Part shown: piece by piece, positions 8,560 through 62,700 of the stretch | Numbering within the stretch: the stretch's first letter is position 1 | How the letters are laid out: every line of letters begins with the position of its first letter | IMG/VR virus record: IMGVR_UViG_3300037067_006336 | Coordinates: 98,118 to 162,117 of that record | Length of the DNA: 64,000 bases | From: a virus | Taxonomy: Duplodnaviria; Caudoviricetes | Strand: one strand, 5' to 3' | Position numbers and translations under genes: made by a program | Notes under the pieces: model-generated | The model's database searches: none | Seen by the model: only the letters and a program-made list of their open reading frames with translations | Told to the model about the DNA's origin: nothing

Positions 8560-9280
8560 AAATAAGCATCATGATATCGAACATACCGTGTGTTGTATGA
8601 CTATCATGATTGTTTTGATGTGATATGTTTATGTATGATCATGATAGTCATACAACATGATGCAATGTGTTCATGATGTGTATGTGAAAAGTATACACGT
8701 TTAATAGAACATGATGACTAATACTATATCAATGGTGTCATGATCATGTTAAACACATCATGAACATCTCAAACATACACTCATTGGAATCATGTTCATG
8801 ATAAGAATACACATATTAAGTACATCATGATCATCTTAAGCATATACATATCAAGCATATCATGAACATAGAAGCATACACGTTGAATTGATCATGATGA
8901 GTAATACTATACAAGGGTATCATGATCATGTTAAGCATATACACATAAAGTACATCATGATCATGTTATACACATTATCGAATACATCATGAACATCTTA
9001 AGCATATACATATTAAGTAGATCATGATCATATTAAGTATACACGTTGATAGAGAATATTGAGCAATAATATATCAAGGGTATCATGATAATGTTAAGCA
9101 TATAACACATAAAATACATCATGATCATGATATACACATTATCGAATACATTATGATGATATCCTTTTAACAGCATATGATGTTATAATGCATATTTGAT
9201 AACTCATGATAATGTACACAACATGTTGAGTTAGGTTATCAATTATATCATGATGTTTTGATAGAAACGTAGTCAAAACA
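8560..9280. repeat. Non-coding ATCATGAT-rich repeat region with a 20-bp inverted repeat and three imperfect 165-185 bp tandem units
   Basis: TGTTGTATGACTATCATGAT 8591-8610 with perfect reverse complement at 8638-8657; units start near 8691, 8874 and 9037. Confidence 0.8.
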
Positions 9281-31632: not shown

Positions 31633-34272
31633 ATGACAAAACAAGTACGAATCCCGGCAGGAACGCTGGGGTATTTCAAGGGTGATGACCTGGCAGCTAG
31701 CGTGTGGTACTCCAAGTACAGGACGGGTAACGAGATTACTCCTGACGACATGTTCGACAGGCATGCATCCGTGATAACTTCGAAATTGATCGATAGGTTA
31801 ACAGGTTCAAGAGATTTCAAGGATAGTGAAACATTCTCCAAACTATCACCAACCGGTAGGGAAATAATAGGGAACATGTGTGATCTGGTTAACTCCGGGG
31901 AGGAAGGAAGGTTGAAATTTTTCAATATGGTGAGGGATTTCGTGAACTTCGACAACATGGTTCCAGGGGGTTCTATGATGCAGGGACTCGGTAACACGGG
32001 GTTATTCACATCACTTTCAAACTGCTTCGTGGCTGGTCAACCACATGATTCGTACGCTGGTATAAACAAGAAAACCTCAGAGATAACCGAGCTCATGAAG
32101 AGACGCGGTGGTGCAGGCCTTGATTTGAGCACGATACGCCCCAGGGGTTCCAGGGTTAACAACCAGTCCGGTACGTCTAGTGGCCCGTGCTTGTTCGCCA
32201 ACCGTTACTCCAACATAACACTCGAGGTGGCGCAGGAGGGAAGACGCGGGGCGTTGATGCTCACGCTTGACATCAAACACCCGGACGCACGGGAGTTCAT
32301 CACCATGAAGCAGGACAAGACCAAGGTTACGGGGGCTAATATATCCGTGAAGATCGGTGATGATTTCATGAATGCCGTGGTAAACAACCAGACGTACTAC
32401 CACGTGTTCCCGTGTGATGTAAAGGTAGACACTTCCAACACCGGGTTCCAGGATGTAATGAATAAACCCCACGGGGAACTCGTCGTGTTCTACCCGTCGG
32501 AAGATTACCTTCACGATGTACCGGAAGGATGCAAGGCAGTGTACGTTAGGCCAGTAAATGCCAGGGAACTGTGGGATACCATCATACAGTGCGCGTGGAA
32601 CACTGCCGAACCAGGCATCATATTCCCTGGTAACTGGGAGAGGGGGGGAACGGATTACCACTACCCTCGTTACAGACCGGTGTCAACTAACCCGTGCTCG
32701 GAAATACCGATGCAAGCTTATGACAGTTGCAGGTTGTACGCGGTGAACATGTACAAGCTGGTCGATAACCCGTTCACACCTGGTTCCACGTTATCCATGG
32801 AAAGGAGTCGCAGGAATTTTTACCTCCAGGCTTTCATCGGGGACGTTATCATCGACATAGAGGTGGAACATATCAACAATATAATAAACAAGGTAAAAAC
32901 ATCAAGTGATCCTGTTGATCTGGTAGATTCTGAAGTAAAATTATGGGAGAACGTGTTGAGGGAAACCATCTCTGGTAGGCGTATGGGTTGTGGCTTCCTG
33001 GGGATGGCTGACATGCTGGCAGCACTAGGTGAGAAATACTCCAGTGTTGACACCATAAAGACAATATTCAAGGCAAAACTTGAATCAGAACTAGACGCTA
33101 CCGTGGACATGTCCATGATGTTCGGTATGTTCTGTGGTTTCGACCCATCACTAGAAAGGGAGGAATCAAACAAGGAAGGAACGTTCTTGAACATGCTGAG
33201 CAATAATTTCAGACCTAAATTTGAACGAATGATGGAACATGGTAGGCGGAACGTGTCGTGGTCAACAGGTGCCCCCACCGGGTCATTATCGCTCATGACC
33301 CAAACCACCCCAGGTATAGAACCGTTGTTTTTACCTTACTTTGAACGCAGGAAGAAATGCATACTAGCAACTGACAGGGTTGATTACATAGACCCGAATG
33401 ACGGTCAGAAATTCACCGTGTTCCTTGGTTTTCACGTTCCTTTCATCGACTGGGCCATAATGACACACGGCGTTAACCCGCGCGAGATATCCAGGAAAGA
33501 AGTAGATGAACTGTTCACTAGAAGCCCGTGGTACGGTCAACTTGCCGCTGATTTGAGCATTGAAGAACGTGTAAATGTCCAATCGGTTGTTCAATCACAC
33601 ACCACTCACGCCATATCATCCACCATAAACCTACCGGCAGATGTCAAACCATCCATAATATCCGATATTTACATGGAATCATGGAAGGCTGGTTTGAAAG
33701 GAAACACCGTGTACCGTGAAGGTTCCAGGGGTGGTGTCATCGTTAAGACAGGTTCCAACCTTGATACCAGTACAGGGAAGGGTAGACCCATCAACCTTGA
33801 TGCCCGTTACTACCGTTACAAGGACAAGGTTGTTATCATCGGGTTGGATTCCAACAACAAACCTTACGAGATATTCATACTATCTGCCGAAGATATCAAC
33901 GCACCGATCATATTCAACACCTACGATTACATAGATGGTTACATAACAAAGGAATCTAGTAACTTCTATTCTTTCACGGCGACAACGTTCGACATACCTG
34001 ACCTTGAATCCATACAGAACGGTGACAAGCAGTTATCCCTCTTATTGTCACAGATACTACGACACGGTATACCGATCGTGAAAGTAGTGAAGAACATAGA
34101 CAAGTGCGAGCCGATATCGGGTTCATTCTCTTACTTCTTGAAGAAAGTATTGACTACTTTCATCGAGAACGGCACCGAGAGCGGGGAGAAATGCCCGTCA
34201 TGCGGGGGTAAGATAGCGTACCAGGACGGGTGTAACACCTGTTTGAGCTGCGGGTTATCAACCAAATGCTAA
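31633..34272 (+). CDS. nrdJ: Class II (B12-dependent) ribonucleotide reductase
   Basis: SLSNCFV, RRGALM, ANISV, EPG, TNPCSE, APTG, SSTIN, C-terminal CPSCG..CLSCG. Confidence 0.92.
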   Translation: MTKQVRIPAGTLGYFKGDDLAASVWYSKYRTGNEITPDDMFDRHASVITSKLIDRLTGSRDFKDSETFSKLSPTGREIIGNMCDLVNSGEEGRLKFFNMVRDFVNFDNMVPGGSMMQGLGNTGLFTSLSNCFVAGQPHDSYAGINKKTSEITELMKRRGGAGLDLSTIRPRGSRVNNQSGTSSGPCLFANRYSNITLEVAQEGRRGALMLTLDIKHPDAREFITMKQDKTKVTGANISVKIGDDFMNAVVNNQTYYHVFPCDVKVDTSNTGFQDVMNKPHGELVVFYPSEDYLHDVPEGCKAVYVRPVNARELWDTIIQCAWNTAEPGIIFPGNWERGGTDYHYPRYRPVSTNPCSEIPMQAYDSCRLYAVNMYKLVDNPFTPGSTLSMERSRRNFYLQAFIGDVIIDIEVEHINNIINKVKTSSDPVDLVDSEVKLWENVLRETISGRRMGCGFLGMADMLAALGEKYSSVDTIKTIFKAKLESELDATVDMSMMFGMFCGFDPSLEREESNKEGTFLNMLSNNFRPKFERMMEHGRRNVSWSTGAPTGSLSLMTQTTPGIEPLFLPYFERRKKCILATDRVDYIDPNDGQKFTVFLGFHVPFIDWAIMTHGVNPREISRKEVDELFTRSPWYGQLAADLSIEERVNVQSVVQSHTTHAISSTINLPADVKPSIISDIYMESWKAGLKGNTVYREGSRGGVIVKTGSNLDTSTGKGRPINLDARYYRYKDKVVIIGLDSNNKPYEIFILSAEDINAPIIFNTYDYIDGYITKESSNFYSFTATTFDIPDLESIQNGDKQLSLLLSQILRHGIPIVKVVKNIDKCEPISGSFSYFLKKVLTTFIENGTESGEKCPSCGGKIAYQDGCNTCLSCGLSTKC

Positions 34273-34277
34273 CTGGG

Positions 34278-35387
34278 ATGAAAGTCAATAATAATTACTA
34301 CGATGCACCGTTGTTCCCCTACGAGTGGAACCTGGAGGATGCTGTTTTCAAGAAGGACAAGGGTAAGGTGTTCTCGTTCTTCTCGGGCGGGGGTGGCTCC
34401 ACCATGGGTTACGAGCTGGCGGGTTTCGACGTTATCGGGTGCAACGAGATAGACCCCAGACAGATGGAGTTATACGTGGCTAACCACCACCCCGTGCACG
34501 CTTACCTTGAACCTATCCAGGAGTTCATCAAGAGGGGTGACCTAGCTGCAGAATTGTACGACCTGGACATACTGGACGGTTCATTCCCGTGTACCACGTT
34601 CTCGATGTGCGGGAAGCGGGAGGAAGTGTGGGGGGTAGAGAGGAAGTACGCGGAGGGTAACTACAACCAGGTGCTCGATACCCTGGCCTTCGAGTTCATC
34701 AAGGCGATCGACAAGTTCCGCCCGAAGGTCATCATAGGGGAGAACGTCACCGGCTTGCTCATGGGGGATGCCGTGCATTACATCCGGCGCGTGCATCACG
34801 AGCTGGCGAGGATCGGTTACCTGTCGAACCACCACGTCGTGAGGGGGGAGGAACTAGGTTTACCCCAGAAGAGACACCGGGTCTTCATCACCGGCATACG
34901 CGAGGACCTGGCGGTTTCCTCGGGTTTGTGTGTGAAGAGCAGGTTCATAAGGCAGGTTCCACCTATTGATCTAACGTTCAACTGCAAGCCGGTAACGTAC
35001 GGGGAGATAGAGCGTGAAGACACGGGTGATACGTCATGCTTGATAAATGATGGGATACAAACACATAAATGGTGGGGATTGGCAATAATAAAAGGCAAAC
35101 AAATGTGTGATGTTCATCCCGCAGGTTATTTCAGTAACCCGCATATATGTTACCCTTCCGAACCAGTTTCAACCATTATGGCATCATCGTACATGTCCGG
35201 GAACCTAAATTACAGGGTTTGCAGGGGGTTGAACCGTGTGGAATTGTGCCTTGCATCATCGTGGCCACTTGATTACGATTTCAAATACCAGAAACACTCC
35301 CACGTGCTAGGCATGTCAGTACCACCCATCATGATGGCGAACGTTGCAACGAGGGTTCATGAACAGTGGTTGTCAAGGCTGAAGTAA
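34278..35387 (+). CDS. DNA cytosine-5 methyltransferase 1
   Basis: FSGGGG, DGSFPC, ENV, QKRHRVF, MSVPP. Confidence 0.92.
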   Translation: MKVNNNYYDAPLFPYEWNLEDAVFKKDKGKVFSFFSGGGGSTMGYELAGFDVIGCNEIDPRQMELYVANHHPVHAYLEPIQEFIKRGDLAAELYDLDILDGSFPCTTFSMCGKREEVWGVERKYAEGNYNQVLDTLAFEFIKAIDKFRPKVIIGENVTGLLMGDAVHYIRRVHHELARIGYLSNHHVVRGEELGLPQKRHRVFITGIREDLAVSSGLCVKSRFIRQVPPIDLTFNCKPVTYGEIEREDTGDTSCLINDGIQTHKWWGLAIIKGKQMCDVHPAGYFSNPHICYPSEPVSTIMASSYMSGNLNYRVCRGLNRVELCLASSWPLDYDFKYQKHSHVLGMSVPPIMMANVATRVHEQWLSRLK

Positions 35388-36024: not shown

Positions 36025-37155
36025 ATGAACAATAATTACTATGATGTCTCTTTGTTCCCCTACGAGTGGAACCTGGAGGATGCTGTTTTCAAGAAGGGTA
36101 AGGGGAGGGTGTTCTCCTTCTTCTCGGGCGGTGGTGGCTCCACCATGGGTTACAAGCTGGCGGGGTTCGACGTGATCGGGTGCAACGAGATAGACCCTAA
36201 ACAGATGTCACCGTATGTCACCAACCTTGATCCAAGATACCCCTACCTTGAACCTATCCAGGAGTTCATCAAGAGGGATGAGCTCCCAAGCGAGTTGTAC
36301 GACCTGGACATACTGGACGGTTCATTCCCGTGTACCACGTTCTCCATGTCCGGTAAACGAGAGGAAGTGTGGGGGGTAGAGAAGAAATACAAGGAGGGCA
36401 ACTACAACCAGGTGCTTGATACCCTCGCCTTCGAGTTCATAAAGGCGATCGACAAGTTCCGCCCGAAGGTCATCATAGGGGAGAACGTCACCGGCTTGCT
36501 CATGGGGGATGCCGTGCATTACATCCGGCGCATACACCACGAGCTGGCGAGGATCGGTTACCTGTCGAACCACCACGTCGTGAGGGGCGAGGAACTGGGG
36601 TTACCCCAGAAGAGACACCGGGTGTTCATCACCGGTATACGCGAGGACCTGACGGTTTCGTCAGGTTTGTGCGTGAAGAGCAAGTTCATCAGGCAGGTTC
36701 CCCAGCTTGATCTAACGTTCAACTGCAAGCCGGTTGTTTTCTCGGAAATTGATGATAAAAACGACGATAGCATCGTGATGTACGGGGATAGAAAGGGGAA
36801 ATTAATTACATCAGTTAAGAATGCAAAGGAATCAGGGTTCAATAAAGTATCGGAATACTTGAAATCAACAGGGAATAAATCATCGTTATTCTCATGGATT
36901 ATCGTTAAACACGATGAGGTTTTACCAACATTATGCACGTTACATGGAACCAGATATTTTGACAATTCTCTGGTGCATCCCGTGCATGACAGGTGCTTGA
37001 ACAAGCTGGAATTATCCAGGATGTCAAGTTGGCCACTGGATTACGATTTCAACGGTTTCTCCCCCGCGTACATGATGGCCATGTCAGTTCCTCCCATCAT
37101 GATGGCTAATGTTGCAACGAGGGTTCATGAACAATGGTTATCAAGGTTATCATGA
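36025..37155 (+). CDS. DNA cytosine-5 methyltransferase 2 (paralog with a different target recognition region)
   Basis: Same motifs; near-identical DNA to copy 1 outside 36735-37029. Confidence 0.92.
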   Translation: MNNNYYDVSLFPYEWNLEDAVFKKGKGRVFSFFSGGGGSTMGYKLAGFDVIGCNEIDPKQMSPYVTNLDPRYPYLEPIQEFIKRDELPSELYDLDILDGSFPCTTFSMSGKREEVWGVEKKYKEGNYNQVLDTLAFEFIKAIDKFRPKVIIGENVTGLLMGDAVHYIRRIHHELARIGYLSNHHVVRGEELGLPQKRHRVFITGIREDLTVSSGLCVKSKFIRQVPQLDLTFNCKPVVFSEIDDKNDDSIVMYGDRKGKLITSVKNAKESGFNKVSEYLKSTGNKSSLFSWIIVKHDEVLPTLCTLHGTRYFDNSLVHPVHDRCLNKLELSRMSSWPLDYDFNGFSPAYMMAMSVPPIMMANVATRVHEQWLSRLS

Positions 37156-48389: not shown

Positions 48390-48446
48390 TTATATTATTA
48401 CAGGATACATGTAAACAGGGATGAATACCCAGTGATATTAAAGATT

Positions 48447-48720
48447 TCCAGGCATGGGTTGCTCATGGTAACCCGCTTTTACCAGGTGGCGGTACTGGAC
48501 GGGGGTTCGAATCCCCCTAGCTCCACTTCCATTTGAAGAACCTGGTGGGTGATAACAGGTTAAACCACCCGTACCGGGGCTAAAAGGATTTAGACATACC
48601 GAGGATACTGGTAACGAGTCACGGCCTGGATGCCAACTAAATGGCAAAACAATTGAAATGGAAACAGTAGACGCCAAGGTAGTGTCTATGTCTCCGGTGC
48701 ATGCTAGAGTAGCATGCTAG
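48447..48720 (+). ncRNA. ssrA: Circularly permuted (two-piece) tmRNA
   Basis: 3' tRNA-like end GGGGGTTCGAATCCCCCTAGCTCCA (to 48525) precedes 5' end GGGGCTAAAAGGATTTAGAC (from 48576); G3-U70 pair; cross-piece helices; tag frame 48643-48720. Confidence 0.85.
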
Positions 48721-48726
48721 TGAAAC

Positions 48727-48752
48727 GGGGCGGGGATTGCTCCCCGCCTTCA
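48727..48752 (+). terminator. GC-rich hairpin after the tmRNA tag
   Basis: GGCGGGGA / TCCCCGCC. Confidence 0.5.
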
Positions 48753-48888
48753 CCACTGGTAAAAATTTGAAAAATAACGATACGAAGTATGGGAAAGATG
48801 AAGAAACTAATAACAGTACCTGTTATATGGGTTACTTGCGTGATGATAATATTACTATCTTGGGTATTCTCCAGGAAAATATCATGAT

Positions 48889-51059: not shown

Positions 51060-51280
51060 CAAACCTAACATTGATATGTATATGATTAATACGATCATGA
51101 TGTCCTTGATGTGTTATATGTATGTGTTTGACATGATCATGATCCCATTGATATGTTATTACTCATCATATTCGATGTATGGATGTGATTAAGGTTGACA
51201 TGATGTCTTTGATATGTATATGTTTATGAGAATCATGATCCACTTACATCAACCTGGTATTGATACACGGGTTACAAACA
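51060..51280 (-). repeat. Inverted copy of the 8.7-9.1 kb repeat unit
   Basis: Reverse complement reads ATGATGAGTAATAACATATCAATGGGATCATGATCATG, similar to CATGATGAGTAATACTATACAAGGGTATCATGATCATG near 8893. Confidence 0.65.
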
Positions 51281-51778: not shown

Positions 51779-53614
51779 ATGGATAATTTAGATAATATAA
51801 GGAAATTACTTACCCCGGAAAAACAAGATTTACTGACCACGTGGGTAGATGCTTACACGGATTACTCCAACGGGGCACAATCCATGCCGGATGCCGTTTT
51901 CGATGAGGTGACGAGAGAATTACAGGCGTGTGGCATCGAGCAGGTGGTAACGTTCATCAATAACTCACTGGAGGAATTGGACGGTGATGGTAAGTTGGAA
52001 ATCAACGATAATCCCGATATGAATTCCAGGTTGATGCTATCGCTAGAGAAGATAAAGTTCCAGGATATGACACCCCGGGAAGTTGCAACCTCCATACTCA
52101 AATGGGTTGGTACCGGGAAGAAATACTACATTGGACCGAAATTCGATGGTTGTGCCATCGGGAAGAGGGACATGAAGGTTCTGACCAGGGGAGGACTCGA
52201 CCTTACTTCGGTCATTGGATCATTAATAGATAAACTACCAGGGGATGTATCCACGGGTGAACTTGTGGTGAAGAAATCAATTTTCAGAGATAACCTGTCA
52301 AAGTTCGACGGGACAGGTGAATACGAGAATACAAGAAACTTCGTTGGTTCGGTAGTGAAGAGTCACTCGGTGTTCAGGAATTATTCCCAATATTGTGACA
52401 TAGTGGGGTTGACGGATGGCAAGAACCCGTTACTGGACTCCACGTACATCGATAATGATGGCACACGGGTGAAGACATGGAACGAGTTAAATTTGGAAGA
52501 TTTAACCAGGCTGGATAAGATACACGATGGGTATCTAGCGACATGCCCGTACGATATAGATGGGATTGTTATCTCGGTATTCGAGGATGGTCCAAGGAAA
52601 GTGAAAGACAAGTACCCCCTCAACATGATAGCCGTTAAATTCAGTGGTGAAACCATAGAGACCACCATCAAGAAGTTGAACTGGGATCATACGAAGACAG
52701 GTAAATTAACACCTGTGGCCGATATTGAACCGGTGTACTACAACGGTGCAACCCTTGAGAGAGCCAACTGTTACTCGCTGGATTACGTCAGACGGATGGG
52801 TATAGGAGAGGGTTCTAGGGTACTGGTAACAAGGTCAGGCGAGATAATACCTGCTGTCGTGAAGGTGTTAACCAGGTCAACAACCATCCACCTGGACATG
52901 AAGGGTAAAGTGATCATCGGGGCACACGTGTTCGATGAATCCGTGATGAACGCGTCTAACACCCCGGAGAAGTTCACCTTGGCATTGAAATTATTACAGC
53001 TTGACGGTATAGGACCTGTCAGCTCATACATGATAGGTAACGTTGTCAACAATGATGTGATAAACCTGTTCGACATTTCCTTGAAACCACGGATCAGGGA
53101 GGTACTCGGGAATGACAAGTGGTACAAGTTCCAGGATTTCTACAACATCAAGACACTATCGCTGGACCAGGTTATAAACCTGTTGCAGTTCAACGGCGTG
53201 GCTGTAACCACGTCCAGGAAACTAGCATTATTGCTGTCAACCAAGGACAAGAAACACGAGGAAGGAATACCTGTCGATACCATCAAGAGGGTACTAACAG
53301 GGGATGGTTTCTCCAGGGTTCAAGATGCTGTAAGGAGATTGGCATCACACGGCATCAAGGTAACTAACCCGGTCGAGGTAAACGATACCACGGTAACATT
53401 CGAGATGTCAGGTGACTGGGAAGTCATGACCAAGGAAGAGTTCAAGACAAGACTGAAGCACGTGTTACCGAACGCGGTACACACCACCCTTACAAGGACA
53501 ACAACGTACCTTTTCGTTGACAGGTTAACATCGACAACCGGTAAGGCTAACAAGGCCAGGAAATACAACGTCAAGATGGTTACATACGAGGACGCGTTGA
53601 AGGGGAAATTTTGA
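51779..53614 (+). CDS. ligA: NAD-dependent DNA ligase
   Basis: MLSL, PKFDG, TRG, ENTRN, DGIV, AVKF, RSGEIIP, BRCT TGKANKARKY. Confidence 0.9.
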   Translation: MDNLDNIRKLLTPEKQDLLTTWVDAYTDYSNGAQSMPDAVFDEVTRELQACGIEQVVTFINNSLEELDGDGKLEINDNPDMNSRLMLSLEKIKFQDMTPREVATSILKWVGTGKKYYIGPKFDGCAIGKRDMKVLTRGGLDLTSVIGSLIDKLPGDVSTGELVVKKSIFRDNLSKFDGTGEYENTRNFVGSVVKSHSVFRNYSQYCDIVGLTDGKNPLLDSTYIDNDGTRVKTWNELNLEDLTRLDKIHDGYLATCPYDIDGIVISVFEDGPRKVKDKYPLNMIAVKFSGETIETTIKKLNWDHTKTGKLTPVADIEPVYYNGATLERANCYSLDYVRRMGIGEGSRVLVTRSGEIIPAVVKVLTRSTTIHLDMKGKVIIGAHVFDESVMNASNTPEKFTLALKLLQLDGIGPVSSYMIGNVVNNDVINLFDISLKPRIREVLGNDKWYKFQDFYNIKTLSLDQVINLLQFNGVAVTTSRKLALLLSTKDKKHEEGIPVDTIKRVLTGDGFSRVQDAVRRLASHGIKVTNPVEVNDTTVTFEMSGDWEVMTKEEFKTRLKHVLPNAVHTTLTRTTTYLFVDRLTSTTGKANKARKYNVKMVTYEDALKGKF

Positions 53615-53634
53615 AATTTTAAAATAATCAAGAT

Positions 53635-54030
53635 ATGACAAGGGAAGAAGCAAAAGAAGCTTATGATAAGTTGCAAGAATGCATCAAAGATGCTGGAGAA
53701 CAAGCACTCAAGTTGAAATCAATCATCGATGGTCGCGATACAGATGAAGAAACTATCAAACGTGCTGAAGAACGTTTCAAAGAACTGATCAGTGGGGTAA
53801 CTATCCAACCATACGATGGTGGCATAAAATATCACCGGGGTGATGAATGGATACTTGACCAGGATTTCAAAAAGAAAGTAGTTTGCATCAGGTATTCGTT
53901 GGTATGGGGTGTTATTGAATCGGAATTTGGTTTTAATGATAATAATATCAGAGAGTTAACCACTACTTGGGTGAATAAACACCTCGGTTGCGAGGGGTTC
54001 ACAACATATTGTCAATTTGCCACTTTTTAA
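53635..54030 (+). CDS. Array-associated small protein, copy 1; C-terminus encoded by repeat 1 and spacer 1
   Basis: Ends ..WVNKHLGCEGFTT-YCQFATF*; WVNKHLGCEGFTT spans the repeat. Confidence 0.8.
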   Translation: MTREEAKEAYDKLQECIKDAGEQALKLKSIIDGRDTDEETIKRAEERFKELISGVTIQPYDGGIKYHRGDEWILDQDFKKKVVCIRYSLVWGVIESEFGFNDNNIRELTTTWVNKHLGCEGFTTYCQFATF

Positions 54031-54268
54031 ACTCGGTGAATAAACACCTCGGTTGCGAGGGGTTCACAACAACAGCATTCGATGTAACTAGTAACACGTT
54101 GGTGAATAAACACCTCGGTTGCAATGGTTTTACAACCGAGACTATTGAGACCTTGTAACATCAAAGGGTGAATAAGCACATCGGTTGCGAGGGGTTCACA
54201 ACGTGTATGATAATACCCATTATAATCCCCCGGGTGAATAAACACCTCAGTTGCTAGGGGGTCACAAC
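53970..54268. CRISPR. CRISPR-like array 1: five 36-nt repeats, four spacers (29, 30, 30, 30 nt)
   Basis: GGTGAATAAACACCTCGGTTGCGAGGGGTTCACAAC at 53970, 54035, 54101, 54167 and 54233; last three carry substitutions. Confidence 0.9.
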
Positions 54269-54451
54269 TCAGTTCTTTAGCTTGTGTATAACGGACAGGT
54301 GTATGAGCCGTGTCTGATCAGAATTAACAAATTGTAACGGCTTCTAATTAGCATTGCTTATACGCCATGTTAGCAATCTTTAAAAATTATGGAAATTGAA
54401 AAAACATTTATCGTTGAAGGGGAAATTTTGAAATTTTAAAATAATCAAGAT

Positions 54452-54859
54452 ATGACAAGGGAAGAAGCAAAAGAAGCTTATGATAAGTTGCAAGAATGCA
54501 TCAAAGATGCCGGAGAACAAGCACTCAAGTTGAAATCAATCATCGATGATTCCAGGAATAACGAGGAAGAAACTATCAAACGTGCCGAGGAACGTTTCAA
54601 GGAACTGATCAGAGGGTTAACTATCCAACCATACGATGGTGGCATAAATTATTACCAGGATGATGAATGGGTACTTGGTCAGGATTTTAAAAACAAGGTA
54701 GTTTGGATAAGGTATTCGTTAATATGGTCAGTTTTTGAATCGGAATTTGGTTTTAAATATGATAATATCGGAAAGTTAACCACTACCTGGGTGAATAAAC
54801 ACCTCGGTTGCGAGGGGTTCACAACGGTGAAGTGGTTTGGCAATCGTTCTATATGGTGA
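54452..54859 (+). CDS. Array-associated small protein, copy 2
   Basis: Paralog of 53635..54030; ends ..WVNKHLGCEGFTT-VKWFGNRSIW*. Confidence 0.8.
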   Translation: MTREEAKEAYDKLQECIKDAGEQALKLKSIIDDSRNNEEETIKRAEERFKELIRGLTIQPYDGGINYYQDDEWVLGQDFKNKVVWIRYSLIWSVFESEFGFKYDNIGKLTTTWVNKHLGCEGFTTVKWFGNRSIW

Positions 54860-55152
54860 ATAAACACCTCGGTTGCGAGGGGTTCACAACGCTGATCGAC
54901 AACAAGAGTATCAAGGACATGGTGAATAAACACCTCGGTTGCGAGGGGTTCACAACCGAATTTGGCGCCGAGCTGAATGCTTATAGGTGAATAAACACCT
55001 CGGTTGCGAGGGGTTCACAACCGCCAAGGGGTTACCCGTCAACGGGAAATGATGAATAAGCACATCGGTTGCGGGGGGTTCACAACACGTGATAGACCCT
55101 GACAAACTATGGAGGGGATGAATAAACACTTCGGTTGCGAGGGGTTCACAAC
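54790..55152. CRISPR. CRISPR-like array 2: six 36-nt repeats, five spacers (29, 30, 29, 29, 30 nt)
   Basis: Repeats at 54790, 54855, 54921, 54986, 55051 and 55117; spacer 54891-54920 matches 62529-62558. Confidence 0.92.
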
Positions 55153-55192: not shown

Positions 55193-55567
55193 ATGAAAAC
55201 AATACGTTATAAACAAGGGAAGTTAAAGGTACTTGCTATCAAATTATGGTTGGCAACTTACGGGGTAAACGCGTATGGTAAGTACAGGTTAGAACTACGT
55301 GCGGGTGACACGGGGTTAATGTTATGCATCTACCAATCCAGGCGGAAACCGTTATTCAGGAACCTTTACGTGTTGTCCGTGTTGTTCTTCCCGTTGGTGT
55401 CACTGTTGGTGTTATTCAAGATAGTAGGCATCATCATTTCACATTACGTTAACGGTGCCGTTAACTTCTACAAGGATTCCGCGTGGGTTGAAGGAATAAG
55501 GTTCTTCAACTGGATAAACATAATTTTAATGTTTATTCTAGGGGTATTATTAATTTTTAAATGGTAA
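55193..55567 (+). CDS. Membrane protein
   Basis: Hydrophobic helices. Confidence 0.5.
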   Translation: MKTIRYKQGKLKVLAIKLWLATYGVNAYGKYRLELRAGDTGLMLCIYQSRRKPLFRNLYVLSVLFFPLVSLLVLFKIVGIIISHYVNGAVNFYKDSAWVEGIRFFNWINIILMFILGVLLIFKW

Positions 55568-55572
55568 GTTCC

Positions 55573-56007
55573 ATGAATAAATTTCTTTACCACGTTACCA
55601 TGGAAAATAACATGACCGGTATCCTGGCTAATGGTTTACTGGTTAACTCGGGTATGAGAAGCCCGTTCACCCGTTTCAGCAAAGATAAGATCATAAGTTC
55701 ATATTATGAAAAATACGGGATGCAACCATTATTCCTTACGAATGATGTGGAACATACTATTAAACAGTTAGGTAAAAATTCAACCCGGTCTTGCATGGTT
55801 TTAAAAATTGATGTGACCGGTTTAAATATGGAAGGAGAATTCGATTACCTTGAAGAAAAATGGTATATGTTTTACAAAAACAGGGAATCGATGATTGATA
55901 ATATGAGGGGAAGAAGAGGTATCACGTTCATTTCCAAGGAAAATATAAAACCATCGTTAATGGTCTTTTGTCCAGAAATAACGACTATCATTAACAATAG
56001 ATATTGA
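55573..56007 (+). CDS. Putative ADP-ribosyltransferase/Tpt1-fold protein
   Basis: LYHVT..N..GILANGL, LFLT, VLKID. Confidence 0.4.
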   Translation: MNKFLYHVTMENNMTGILANGLLVNSGMRSPFTRFSKDKIISSYYEKYGMQPLFLTNDVEHTIKQLGKNSTRSCMVLKIDVTGLNMEGEFDYLEEKWYMFYKNRESMIDNMRGRRGITFISKENIKPSLMVFCPEITTIINNRY

Positions 56008-62418: not shown

Positions 62419-62700
62419 ATGGGAAACACCAGCAACATCACTACGGTAGACACGATGAAGGTAAACTGGAACAAGTTAACACTGGGCGAGTTCATGAAGG
62501 TGGAATCGGAATACCAGTTATCTGGTAAGCTGATCGATAACAAGAGTATCAAGGACATGATAATAGTGGAGATATTCGGGAACAAGTACCAGGTAACAAG
62601 TACCATTTACAACAGGATCAAAGCTTGCAAGAACAATGATACCAGGTTGAAGATGATGAATGATGTAACCATAACACATTCCCCGCTGGAGGAACTTTAA
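62419..62700 (+). CDS. Hypothetical protein containing the protospacer for array 2 spacer 2
   Basis: ORF 29 nt after CAGGATAT at 62390; match at 62529-62558. Confidence 0.7.
   Translation: MGNTSNITTVDTMKVNWNKLTLGEFMKVESEYQLSGKLIDNKSIKDMIIVEIFGNKYQVTSTIYNRIKACKNNDTRLKMMNDVTITHSPLEEL

Follow-up and report, generated by a model that had tools for sequence, protein, structure and literature searches.

Where the spacers of two CRISPR-like arrays in a large phage genome were taken from, and what they could do for a carrier whose own gene one of them matches almost base for base, are the questions raised by this locus. The carrier is a large lytic-type uncultured phage. Its IMG/VR virus record (162,117 bp, linear, a metagenome assembly estimated to be ~73% complete) codes for a T4-type portal and terminase, a family B polymerase, ribonucleotide reductase, and topoisomerase subunits, as well as for three C5 and one N6 DNA methyltransferases, a reverse transcriptase, and an integrase-core (rve) protein. 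The window, i.e. the whole stretch of DNA under analysis, is the final 64 kb of the 162,117-bp record, and the positions given below are those of the window unless they are named as genome positions. The genes of the record lie on the - strand as far as ~69.4 kb; from there to its end they lie on the + strand. No Cas family is present among the 25 (of 29) Pfam families listed for the 75 largest ORFs of the ~73% complete record, and no tracrRNA-like anti-repeat (a complement to the repeat at >=24/36 or >=17/20 positions) was detected in the 162 kb. A tracrRNA encoded by the host is a possible alternative source to a phage-borne one.

The arrays are composed of a 36-nt repeat, present 11 times, and nine unique spacers of 29-30 nt; in the whole record there are no further copies of the repeat outside the two arrays. 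Each array follows a small ORF on the same strand, and the two modules are arranged in tandem:

53597..53625, + strand: promoter-like site of small ORF copy 1 (match to the consensus only, 9/12)
53635..54030, + strand: small ORF copy 1, 131 aa, running through repeat 1 with its stop within spacer 1
53970..54268, + strand: array 1, five 36-nt repeats and four spacers; repeats 3-5 decayed
54414..54442, + strand: promoter-like site of small ORF copy 2 (match to the consensus; hexamers the same as in copy 1)
54452..54859, + strand: small ORF copy 2, 135 aa, running through repeat 1 and spacer 5 with its stop in repeat 2
54790..55152, + strand: array 2, six 36-nt repeats and five spacers; final two repeats decayed

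The last 36 bases of each small gene are repeat 1 of its array. In both arrays the gene-proximal repeats are identical, while the distal ones carry 2-4 changes, and since the decayed repeats are always gene-distal, here and at the homologous loci, the arrays show polar growth at the gene end. The starts of the two modules (53595-53731 and 54412-54548; 137 nt, with the promoter-like site included) are 99% identical and the remainder 88%. The two copies of the small ORF are 79% identical to each other, with a dN/dS of 0.43. The repeat of this phage, when folded alone, forms an outer and an inner stem (-13 kcal/mol, z -3.7). No CRISPR repeat family was returned by an Rfam search across the arrays, and nothing matched the array region among GenBank phages at a permissive threshold. 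A 676-bp ENA contig (L015:1-676) is identical to the window over ~200 nt (54247-54450), from the end of array 1 to the start of module 2. Beyond the identical part it contains a copy of small ORF 2 with a broken frame, decayed repeats, and a different spacer, which points to a close relative whose second module is dying. As an independent assembly reproduces the junction and then continues into a decayed gene and another spacer, the array locus is genuine and its turnover is quick.

The spacer that was noticed in the first-pass annotation is spacer 6, the second one in array 2. This spacer, its target, and the five further spacers that match the record are as follows:

54891..54920, + strand: spacer 6; 29/30 bases, same sense as the ORF that it matches
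62529..62558, + strand: protospacer of spacer 6, codons 37-47 of ORF 62419-62700
62419..62700, + strand: ORF bearing this protospacer, 93 aa
54006..54034, + strand: spacer 1; exact, 29/29, at genome 1821-1849 (upstream of the window), in antisense orientation to the block of - strand genes at that site
54071..54100, + strand: spacer 2; 29/30 at genome 27607-27636, in a 472-aa gene, same sense; synonymous difference at an Asp third position
54137..54166, + strand: spacer 3; 29/30 at genome 3406-3435, across the end of a 220-aa gene, same sense; synonymous difference at an Ile third position
55022..55050, + strand: spacer 8; exact, 29/29, at genome 65268-65296, in a 783-aa gene beside a baseplate gene, antisense
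55087..55116, + strand: spacer 9; 26/30 at genome 67881-67910, in a baseplate-like gene, same sense

The match of spacer 6 to its gene was reproduced as first described: 29 of 30 bases agree on the same strand, and the single mismatch, where the spacer has C and the gene has T, is at the third base of an Asp codon and is synonymous. None of 100 dinucleotide-preserving shuffles gave such a second match, and its BLAST E value against the whole 162-kb record is ~7e-10. The matched ORF belongs to no Pfam or PHROG family, and a search among 5.8 billion proteins returned only itself. The comparison of all nine spacers with the whole genome by BLAST, which the first-pass annotation had proposed, added five matches to the one reported, so that six of the nine match the phage's own record (E 1e-11 to 0.01); the target sites of the added five are all upstream of the window. 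Two of the six matches are exact, three have one synonymous third-position transition each, and one (spacer 9) has four differences, two of them synonymous and two replacement. Three spacers are without a match, which is about the number to be expected if all nine came from this lineage and a quarter of the genome is missing. No theme is common to the targets, which are unrelated genes from early-looking as well as structural regions. Searches of the target genes against Pfam, PHROGs, and PADLOC gave a match (baseplate-like) only for the target of spacer 9, and a search for relatives of the 783-aa gene returned none. The flanks of the six protospacers show no consensus motif.

The distribution of the differences is informative as to the origin of the spacers. 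In total, 7 of the 178 matched bases differ (3.9%), and 5 of these 7 differences are synonymous in the target genes. Such a proportion is improbable (~0.02) under unconstrained drift of the spacers, assuming that ~28% of random changes are synonymous, and the differences are thus attributed to divergence of protein-coding genes, the genome of the donor and the present one being as different as relatives are. At 3.9% divergence the probability that a 29-mer is identical is ~0.31, and ~1.9 exact matches are expected among six, compared with the two observed. The exact matches therefore need not come from this very genome, and, their number being the one predicted by chance, there is no depletion of self-matching spacers. 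Spacer 6 and at least five of the other eight spacers derive from this phage's own lineage, the donors being most likely co-infecting relatives of ~96% identity or the phage's own ancestors. This agrees with the earlier suggestion that the spacer had been taken from a close relative. The arrays are also, as had been proposed, genuine CRISPR-type arrays of acquired spacers and not protein repeats: the repeats are of fixed length with unique spacers between them, the arrays are polar, and the spacers are copied from mobile-element DNA, six of nine from this record and with mostly synonymous differences. The assignment of the donor is the new element here, with two thirds of the spacers, exact matches included, coming from the lineage of the carrier.

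This content is not shared by the related phages. In nine related phage records, 0 of ~24 spacers match the record in which they are found, where ~5-6 matches (completeness-weighted) would be expected at the rate of this phage, and the kin-derived spacers are accordingly atypical and peculiar to it. A 4.7-kb metagenome contig of a different phage (L143) has an array of 10 spacers (L143:2985-3690) behind a homologue of the small gene, with the repeat that is the closest to that of this phage. Spacer 6 of the L143 array matches a 523-aa gene of the present record (genome 10860-10895, upstream of the window) at 29/32 positions (E 3e-5; the best shuffled control sequence reached 73% identity). By this match, gene-fused arrays do hold sequence of other array-bearing phages.

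The small protein has at least 216 homologues at E <=0.001 in a full HMMER search. In the alignment, the repeat-encoded residues 113-125 correspond to the conserved C-terminal motif of the family, and in many homologues this motif is repeated ~10 residues further on, as produced by an in-frame 66-nt period. The array begins in the last 36 nt of the gene at 9 of 10 IMG/VR loci, in two ENA/Logan contigs, and at 27 of 40 metagenome loci, some of which duplicate IMG/VR loci, while several others end at contig ends. The gene-plus-array design is thus present at ~30 loci in unrelated uncultured phages, each with a repeat of its own (the mean column identity among phages is 69%). The homologous arrays hold 1-10 spacers, mostly of 30 nt, with the decayed repeats on the gene-distal side, and several genomes have two gene-plus-array modules. 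Nine loci, that of the closest homologue among them, have the gene and no array. Other large phage contigs with two modules are L167 (10132-10400 and 13600-13900) and a 336-kb contig represented by both L159 and L180; one array of L167 contains the same spacer twice in succession. A hairpin common to the family and maintained by compensatory changes was considered and rejected, the fold and pair counts on 30 repeats not exceeding those of shuffled controls. We did not find an array fused to the coding end of a conserved gene described in the papers that we searched.

The 11 array-bearing phage records, with GC contents of 25-50%, have the small protein as the only protein common to all of them, and consequently no phage-encoded integrase, effector, or partner is evident. 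The confident model of small ORF copy 2 (pLDDT 92.6), in which a small alpha/beta domain comes after a long helix, has no standout match in the PDB (Foldseek E >0.7; best VIA Z 5.2), and the Atlas neighbours of the protein are viral hypothetical proteins only. The small ORFs returned nothing from Pfam, PHROGs, or PADLOC. The family was not detected in GenBank phages by tblastn with two members as queries, or in 401 sampled Bacteroidota genomes.

Several features bear on the strand from which the arrays are read. The modules run in the same direction as all the neighbouring genes, a promoter-like site precedes each small ORF on the + strand, and it is towards the 3' end of this strand that the repeats are decayed. 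Read on the - strand, each repeat is a terminator-like hairpin followed by a T-run. Taken together, these sequence features favour the + strand as the one transcribed. Guides of the + strand would be antisense to genes in the case of two of the six matched spacers (1 and 8) and sense in the case of the other four (2, 3, 6, and 9). Because spacer 6 has the same sense as ORF 62419-62700, a + strand guide cannot pair with the mRNA of this ORF.

The type of the arrays was judged from their format and from the repeat. In F. columnare both the II-C and the VI-B arrays have 36-nt repeats and 30-nt spacers, and the VI-B array, which is without adaptation genes, receives its spacers in trans from the II-C Cas1-Cas2 (PMC8092290). 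The same format is seen in F. branchiophilum. The repeats of the phage family show 16-23 identities in 36 ungapped positions with Flavobacterium VI-B repeats (19 for this phage) and 10-19 with the II-C repeat, with ~10 +/- 2.7 expected by chance. For the repeat of this phage alone, the values are 19/36 with the F. columnare VI-B repeat in either orientation and 10-11 with the II-C repeat; the repeats are partly palindromic, so the identity leaves either orientation equal. The VI-B array of F. columnare is transcribed from the leader into the array, and a short motif at the leader-distal end of its repeat is common with II-C (PMC8092290). The phage repeats carry the five-base leader-distal motif of Flavobacterium at their gene-distal end, and the termini are similar. 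A Cas13b-type effector is probably the one involved, a lead with partial support that rests on the format and on the identity of about one half. The orientation of guides towards mRNA is a weak criterion for VI-B, since most of the newly acquired spacers in F. columnare do not target mRNA (PMC8092290).

A host with the same repeat was sought in several collections. The 3' 20-mer of the repeat is absent, as an exact match, from 185,579 species genomes, from IMG/VR, and from 241 million metagenome records, and a profile of 30 family repeats gave no match in five Bacteroidota genomes, a comparison of low power. A scan of the species genomes with a 10-mer common to the family was tried as well; it returned only assorted unrelated CRISPR arrays and gave no link to a Cas type. 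The sole look-alike is an orphan array of five 36-nt repeats with ~30-nt spacers on a Flavobacteriaceae chromosome (L077:4305-4608), flanked by a CBASS-like operon with a caspase-like gene and by a two-component system, with no cas gene within 8 kb.

As a whole, the explanation that we prefer, tentatively and at somewhat less than an even chance, is that the spacers are derived from kin, were captured in trans by the host, are used as + strand guides, and act against related phages. Each tandem module is a small conserved phage gene of which the final 36 bases also serve as repeat 1 of its array, and the array is extended on the gene-proximal side. New spacers would be inserted by a host adaptation complex acting in trans, for which the filling of Cas13b arrays by the type II-C Cas1-Cas2 is the model; capture and use by host enzymes would follow from the absence of cas genes among the families listed for the ~73% complete record. 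The module would be read from the + strand along with the small gene, and the repeat-spacer units could then be loaded by a class 2 effector of the host, probably Cas13b-like. The most likely effect would be directed at close relatives of the phage that share its cell. The captor of the spacers, the identity of the effector, and the occurrence of interference are parts of this scheme that we infer.

Of the functional readings, the targeting of kin phages comes first, with capture as a by-product as its close rival. It is favoured by the L143 spacer that matches this phage and by the precedent of the mini-arrays of archaeal viruses (PMC6858448). Against it are the two exact self-matches: a DNA-targeting effector would strike the carrier, and with + strand guides and an RNA-targeting effector these two spacers are complementary to the phage's own transcripts. 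The protospacers also have no flanking motif, and there is no strand bias towards mRNA (2 antisense, 4 sense). Further points against the preferred explanation are that no host array with this repeat was found in the collections searched with the exact 20-mer, that the ~24 spacers of the related phages have no matches in their own records, and that no relative with the spacer alleles was found.

In the by-product reading, the gene imitates a host repeat at its 3' end and its transcript soaks up the effector, in the manner of an RNA anti-CRISPR, while the Cas1-Cas2 of the host sometimes inserts abundant phage DNA behind it, the spacers being scars with no targeting role. We consider this only a little less likely than the targeting of kin, and much of the above is accommodated by it: exact self-matches occur at the chance rate with no sign of selection against self-targeting, the protospacers have no flanking motif and the spacers no strand bias, the arrays are short and decay quickly (a relative has a decayed copy), and no array follows the gene in nine members of the family, one of them the closest homologue. 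Self spacers are also abundant and seemingly harmless in the VI-B arrays of F. columnare (PMC8092290), and anti-CRISPR RNAs that mimic repeats are known (PMC10651486). On the other hand, there is no host repeat to compare with, none having been found in the collections searched; the spacers of the related records miss their own genomes, though their own DNA should be equally abundant; the L143 spacer that matches this phage resembles sampling across phages; and the repeat is conserved as protein-coding sequence, with a family-wide RNA fold unsupported. A more elaborate form of kin targeting appears decidedly improbable to us, namely that the small gene and its array are a self-contained phage device for distinguishing kin from self, which would sample near-identical competitors and exclude them by means of an RNA-guided effector of the host, the carrier being spared by synonymous recoding of its protospacers and by the orientation of the guides (exact matches only where the guide cannot pair with the phage's own transcripts).

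The first-pass annotation had offered, as a second possibility, that the array is transcribed from the minus strand and that the guide of spacer 6 regulates the phage's own gene, the single mismatch becoming a G-U wobble. The arithmetic of the wobble is correct for this spacer, but two of the three single mismatches, i.e. those of the other two such spacers, would give A-C on that strand. Extended to the whole array, the guides together with a host effector would tune the phage's own genes, ORF 62419-62700 included. In accord with this, every matched target is within the phage's own genome, in genes or at gene ends, and guides of the - strand would render the four mismatched spacers antisense to mRNAs and the two exact ones harmless, a partition that, given two exact matches among six, arises by chance in 1 case in 15. 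The + strand promoter-like sites before each module, the 3' decay, the orientation common to the neighbouring genes, and the terminator-like form of every repeat on the - strand speak against a minus-strand guide; the targets are unrelated genes, early-looking and structural, without a common theme; and the spacers of the related phages, which do not match their own genomes, rule out self-regulation as the function of the family. We therefore hold regulation of the phage's own genes to be very unlikely. An error of assembly, by which an array of a host or of a rival phage was joined into the contig or two strains were mixed, the self-matches then not being on one molecule, is barely credible. 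The record is indeed a linear, ~73% complete metagenome assembly, and spacers at 0-4 mismatches to one phage have the look of a host array directed against it. However, the matched protospacers are on either side of the arrays, the gene family to which the arrays are joined in frame occurs in phage contigs only, and the junction of the array 1 end with module 2 is the same base for base over ~200 nt in the independent ENA assembly. Mixing of strains within the contig is possible, yet it would leave the origin of the spacers unchanged.

A few archaeal viruses and prophages are known to carry mini-arrays directed against related viruses. Those described by Medvedeva et al. (2019) are found in cas-less carriers, have spacers against closely related viruses, and depend on the CRISPR machinery of the host (PMC6858448; review PMC11656645). 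The present arrays are similar in that there are no cas genes and that the spacers match the carrier's own lineage at 87-100%. They are different in size and in the origin of the repeat: the published mini-arrays hold one spacer or two, and their repeats are identical to those of the host (PMC6858448), whereas here there are four and five spacers, a conserved phage gene supplies repeat 1 with its coding 3' end, and no host repeat was found for it by the exact 20-mer search. The mini-array carriers mostly differ from the spacer at the homologous site (PMC6858448); in the present case 4 of the 6 matched spacers differ from the carrier, and two match it exactly.

With the VI-B arrays of F. columnare (Hoikkala et al. 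2021) the modules have in common the 36/30 format, the lack of adaptation genes, the probable direction of transcription from the leader side into the array, the leader-distal motif, and the self-matching spacers, of which the F. columnare arrays acquire many with no obvious harm (PMC8092290). Unlike those, they are on a phage and not beside cas13b, with a protein-coding gene in place of the leader; the acquisition motif reported for F. columnare (PMC8092290) is not seen beside the six protospacers, and the identity of the repeats is about one half. The RNA anti-CRISPRs of Camara-Wilpert et al. (2023) are non-coding solitary repeats with at least 90% identity to known host repeats, and the pipeline used to search for them masks confident ORFs (PMC10651486). 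What the modules share with these is a repeat-like element, carried by a phage lacking Cas, with which an effector of the host could interact, and the array-less members of the family carry a single unit at the gene end. The unit described here, unlike theirs, is part of a coding sequence and has spacers behind it, and no counterpart of it is known from a host.

Among the gene-fused arrays found repeatedly in uncultured phages, those of this locus have the clearest assignment of a donor so far. They show CRISPR-type capture at work on phage genomes in the course of infection, and indicate that arrays borne by a phage can record, and perhaps attack, its close relatives. Spacer matches from phage to phage are, moreover, a way to link competing phages in metagenomes. 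The exact self-matching spacers raise the question of how they are tolerated by the carrier. If a host effector of the Cas13b type is involved, the modules would be a naturally occurring example in which phages arm or disarm an RNA-guided RNase.

Some other elements of the window are described for completeness. Just 3' of the arrays, a 148-aa ORF (55561-56007) shows a sub-threshold Pfam match to an ADP-ribosyltransferase family (E 0.006); a search for a solved relative returned none. An ADP-ribosylating anti-CRISPR is known from elsewhere. Two tandem paralogous genes of ~375 aa each (34266-35387 and 36025-37155) have blocks of 185-300 nt in common, spaced by 1741 nt and ~90% identical, and two further array-bearing phage records contain homologues. 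The non-coding gaps at 8730-9156 and 51071-51239 are occupied by short repeats, dense and in phase, with a palindromic six-base core; they have an iteron-like look and had also been noticed in the first-pass annotation. A permuted tmRNA gene with a 25-residue tag peptide was located at 48433-48811 by ARAGORN.
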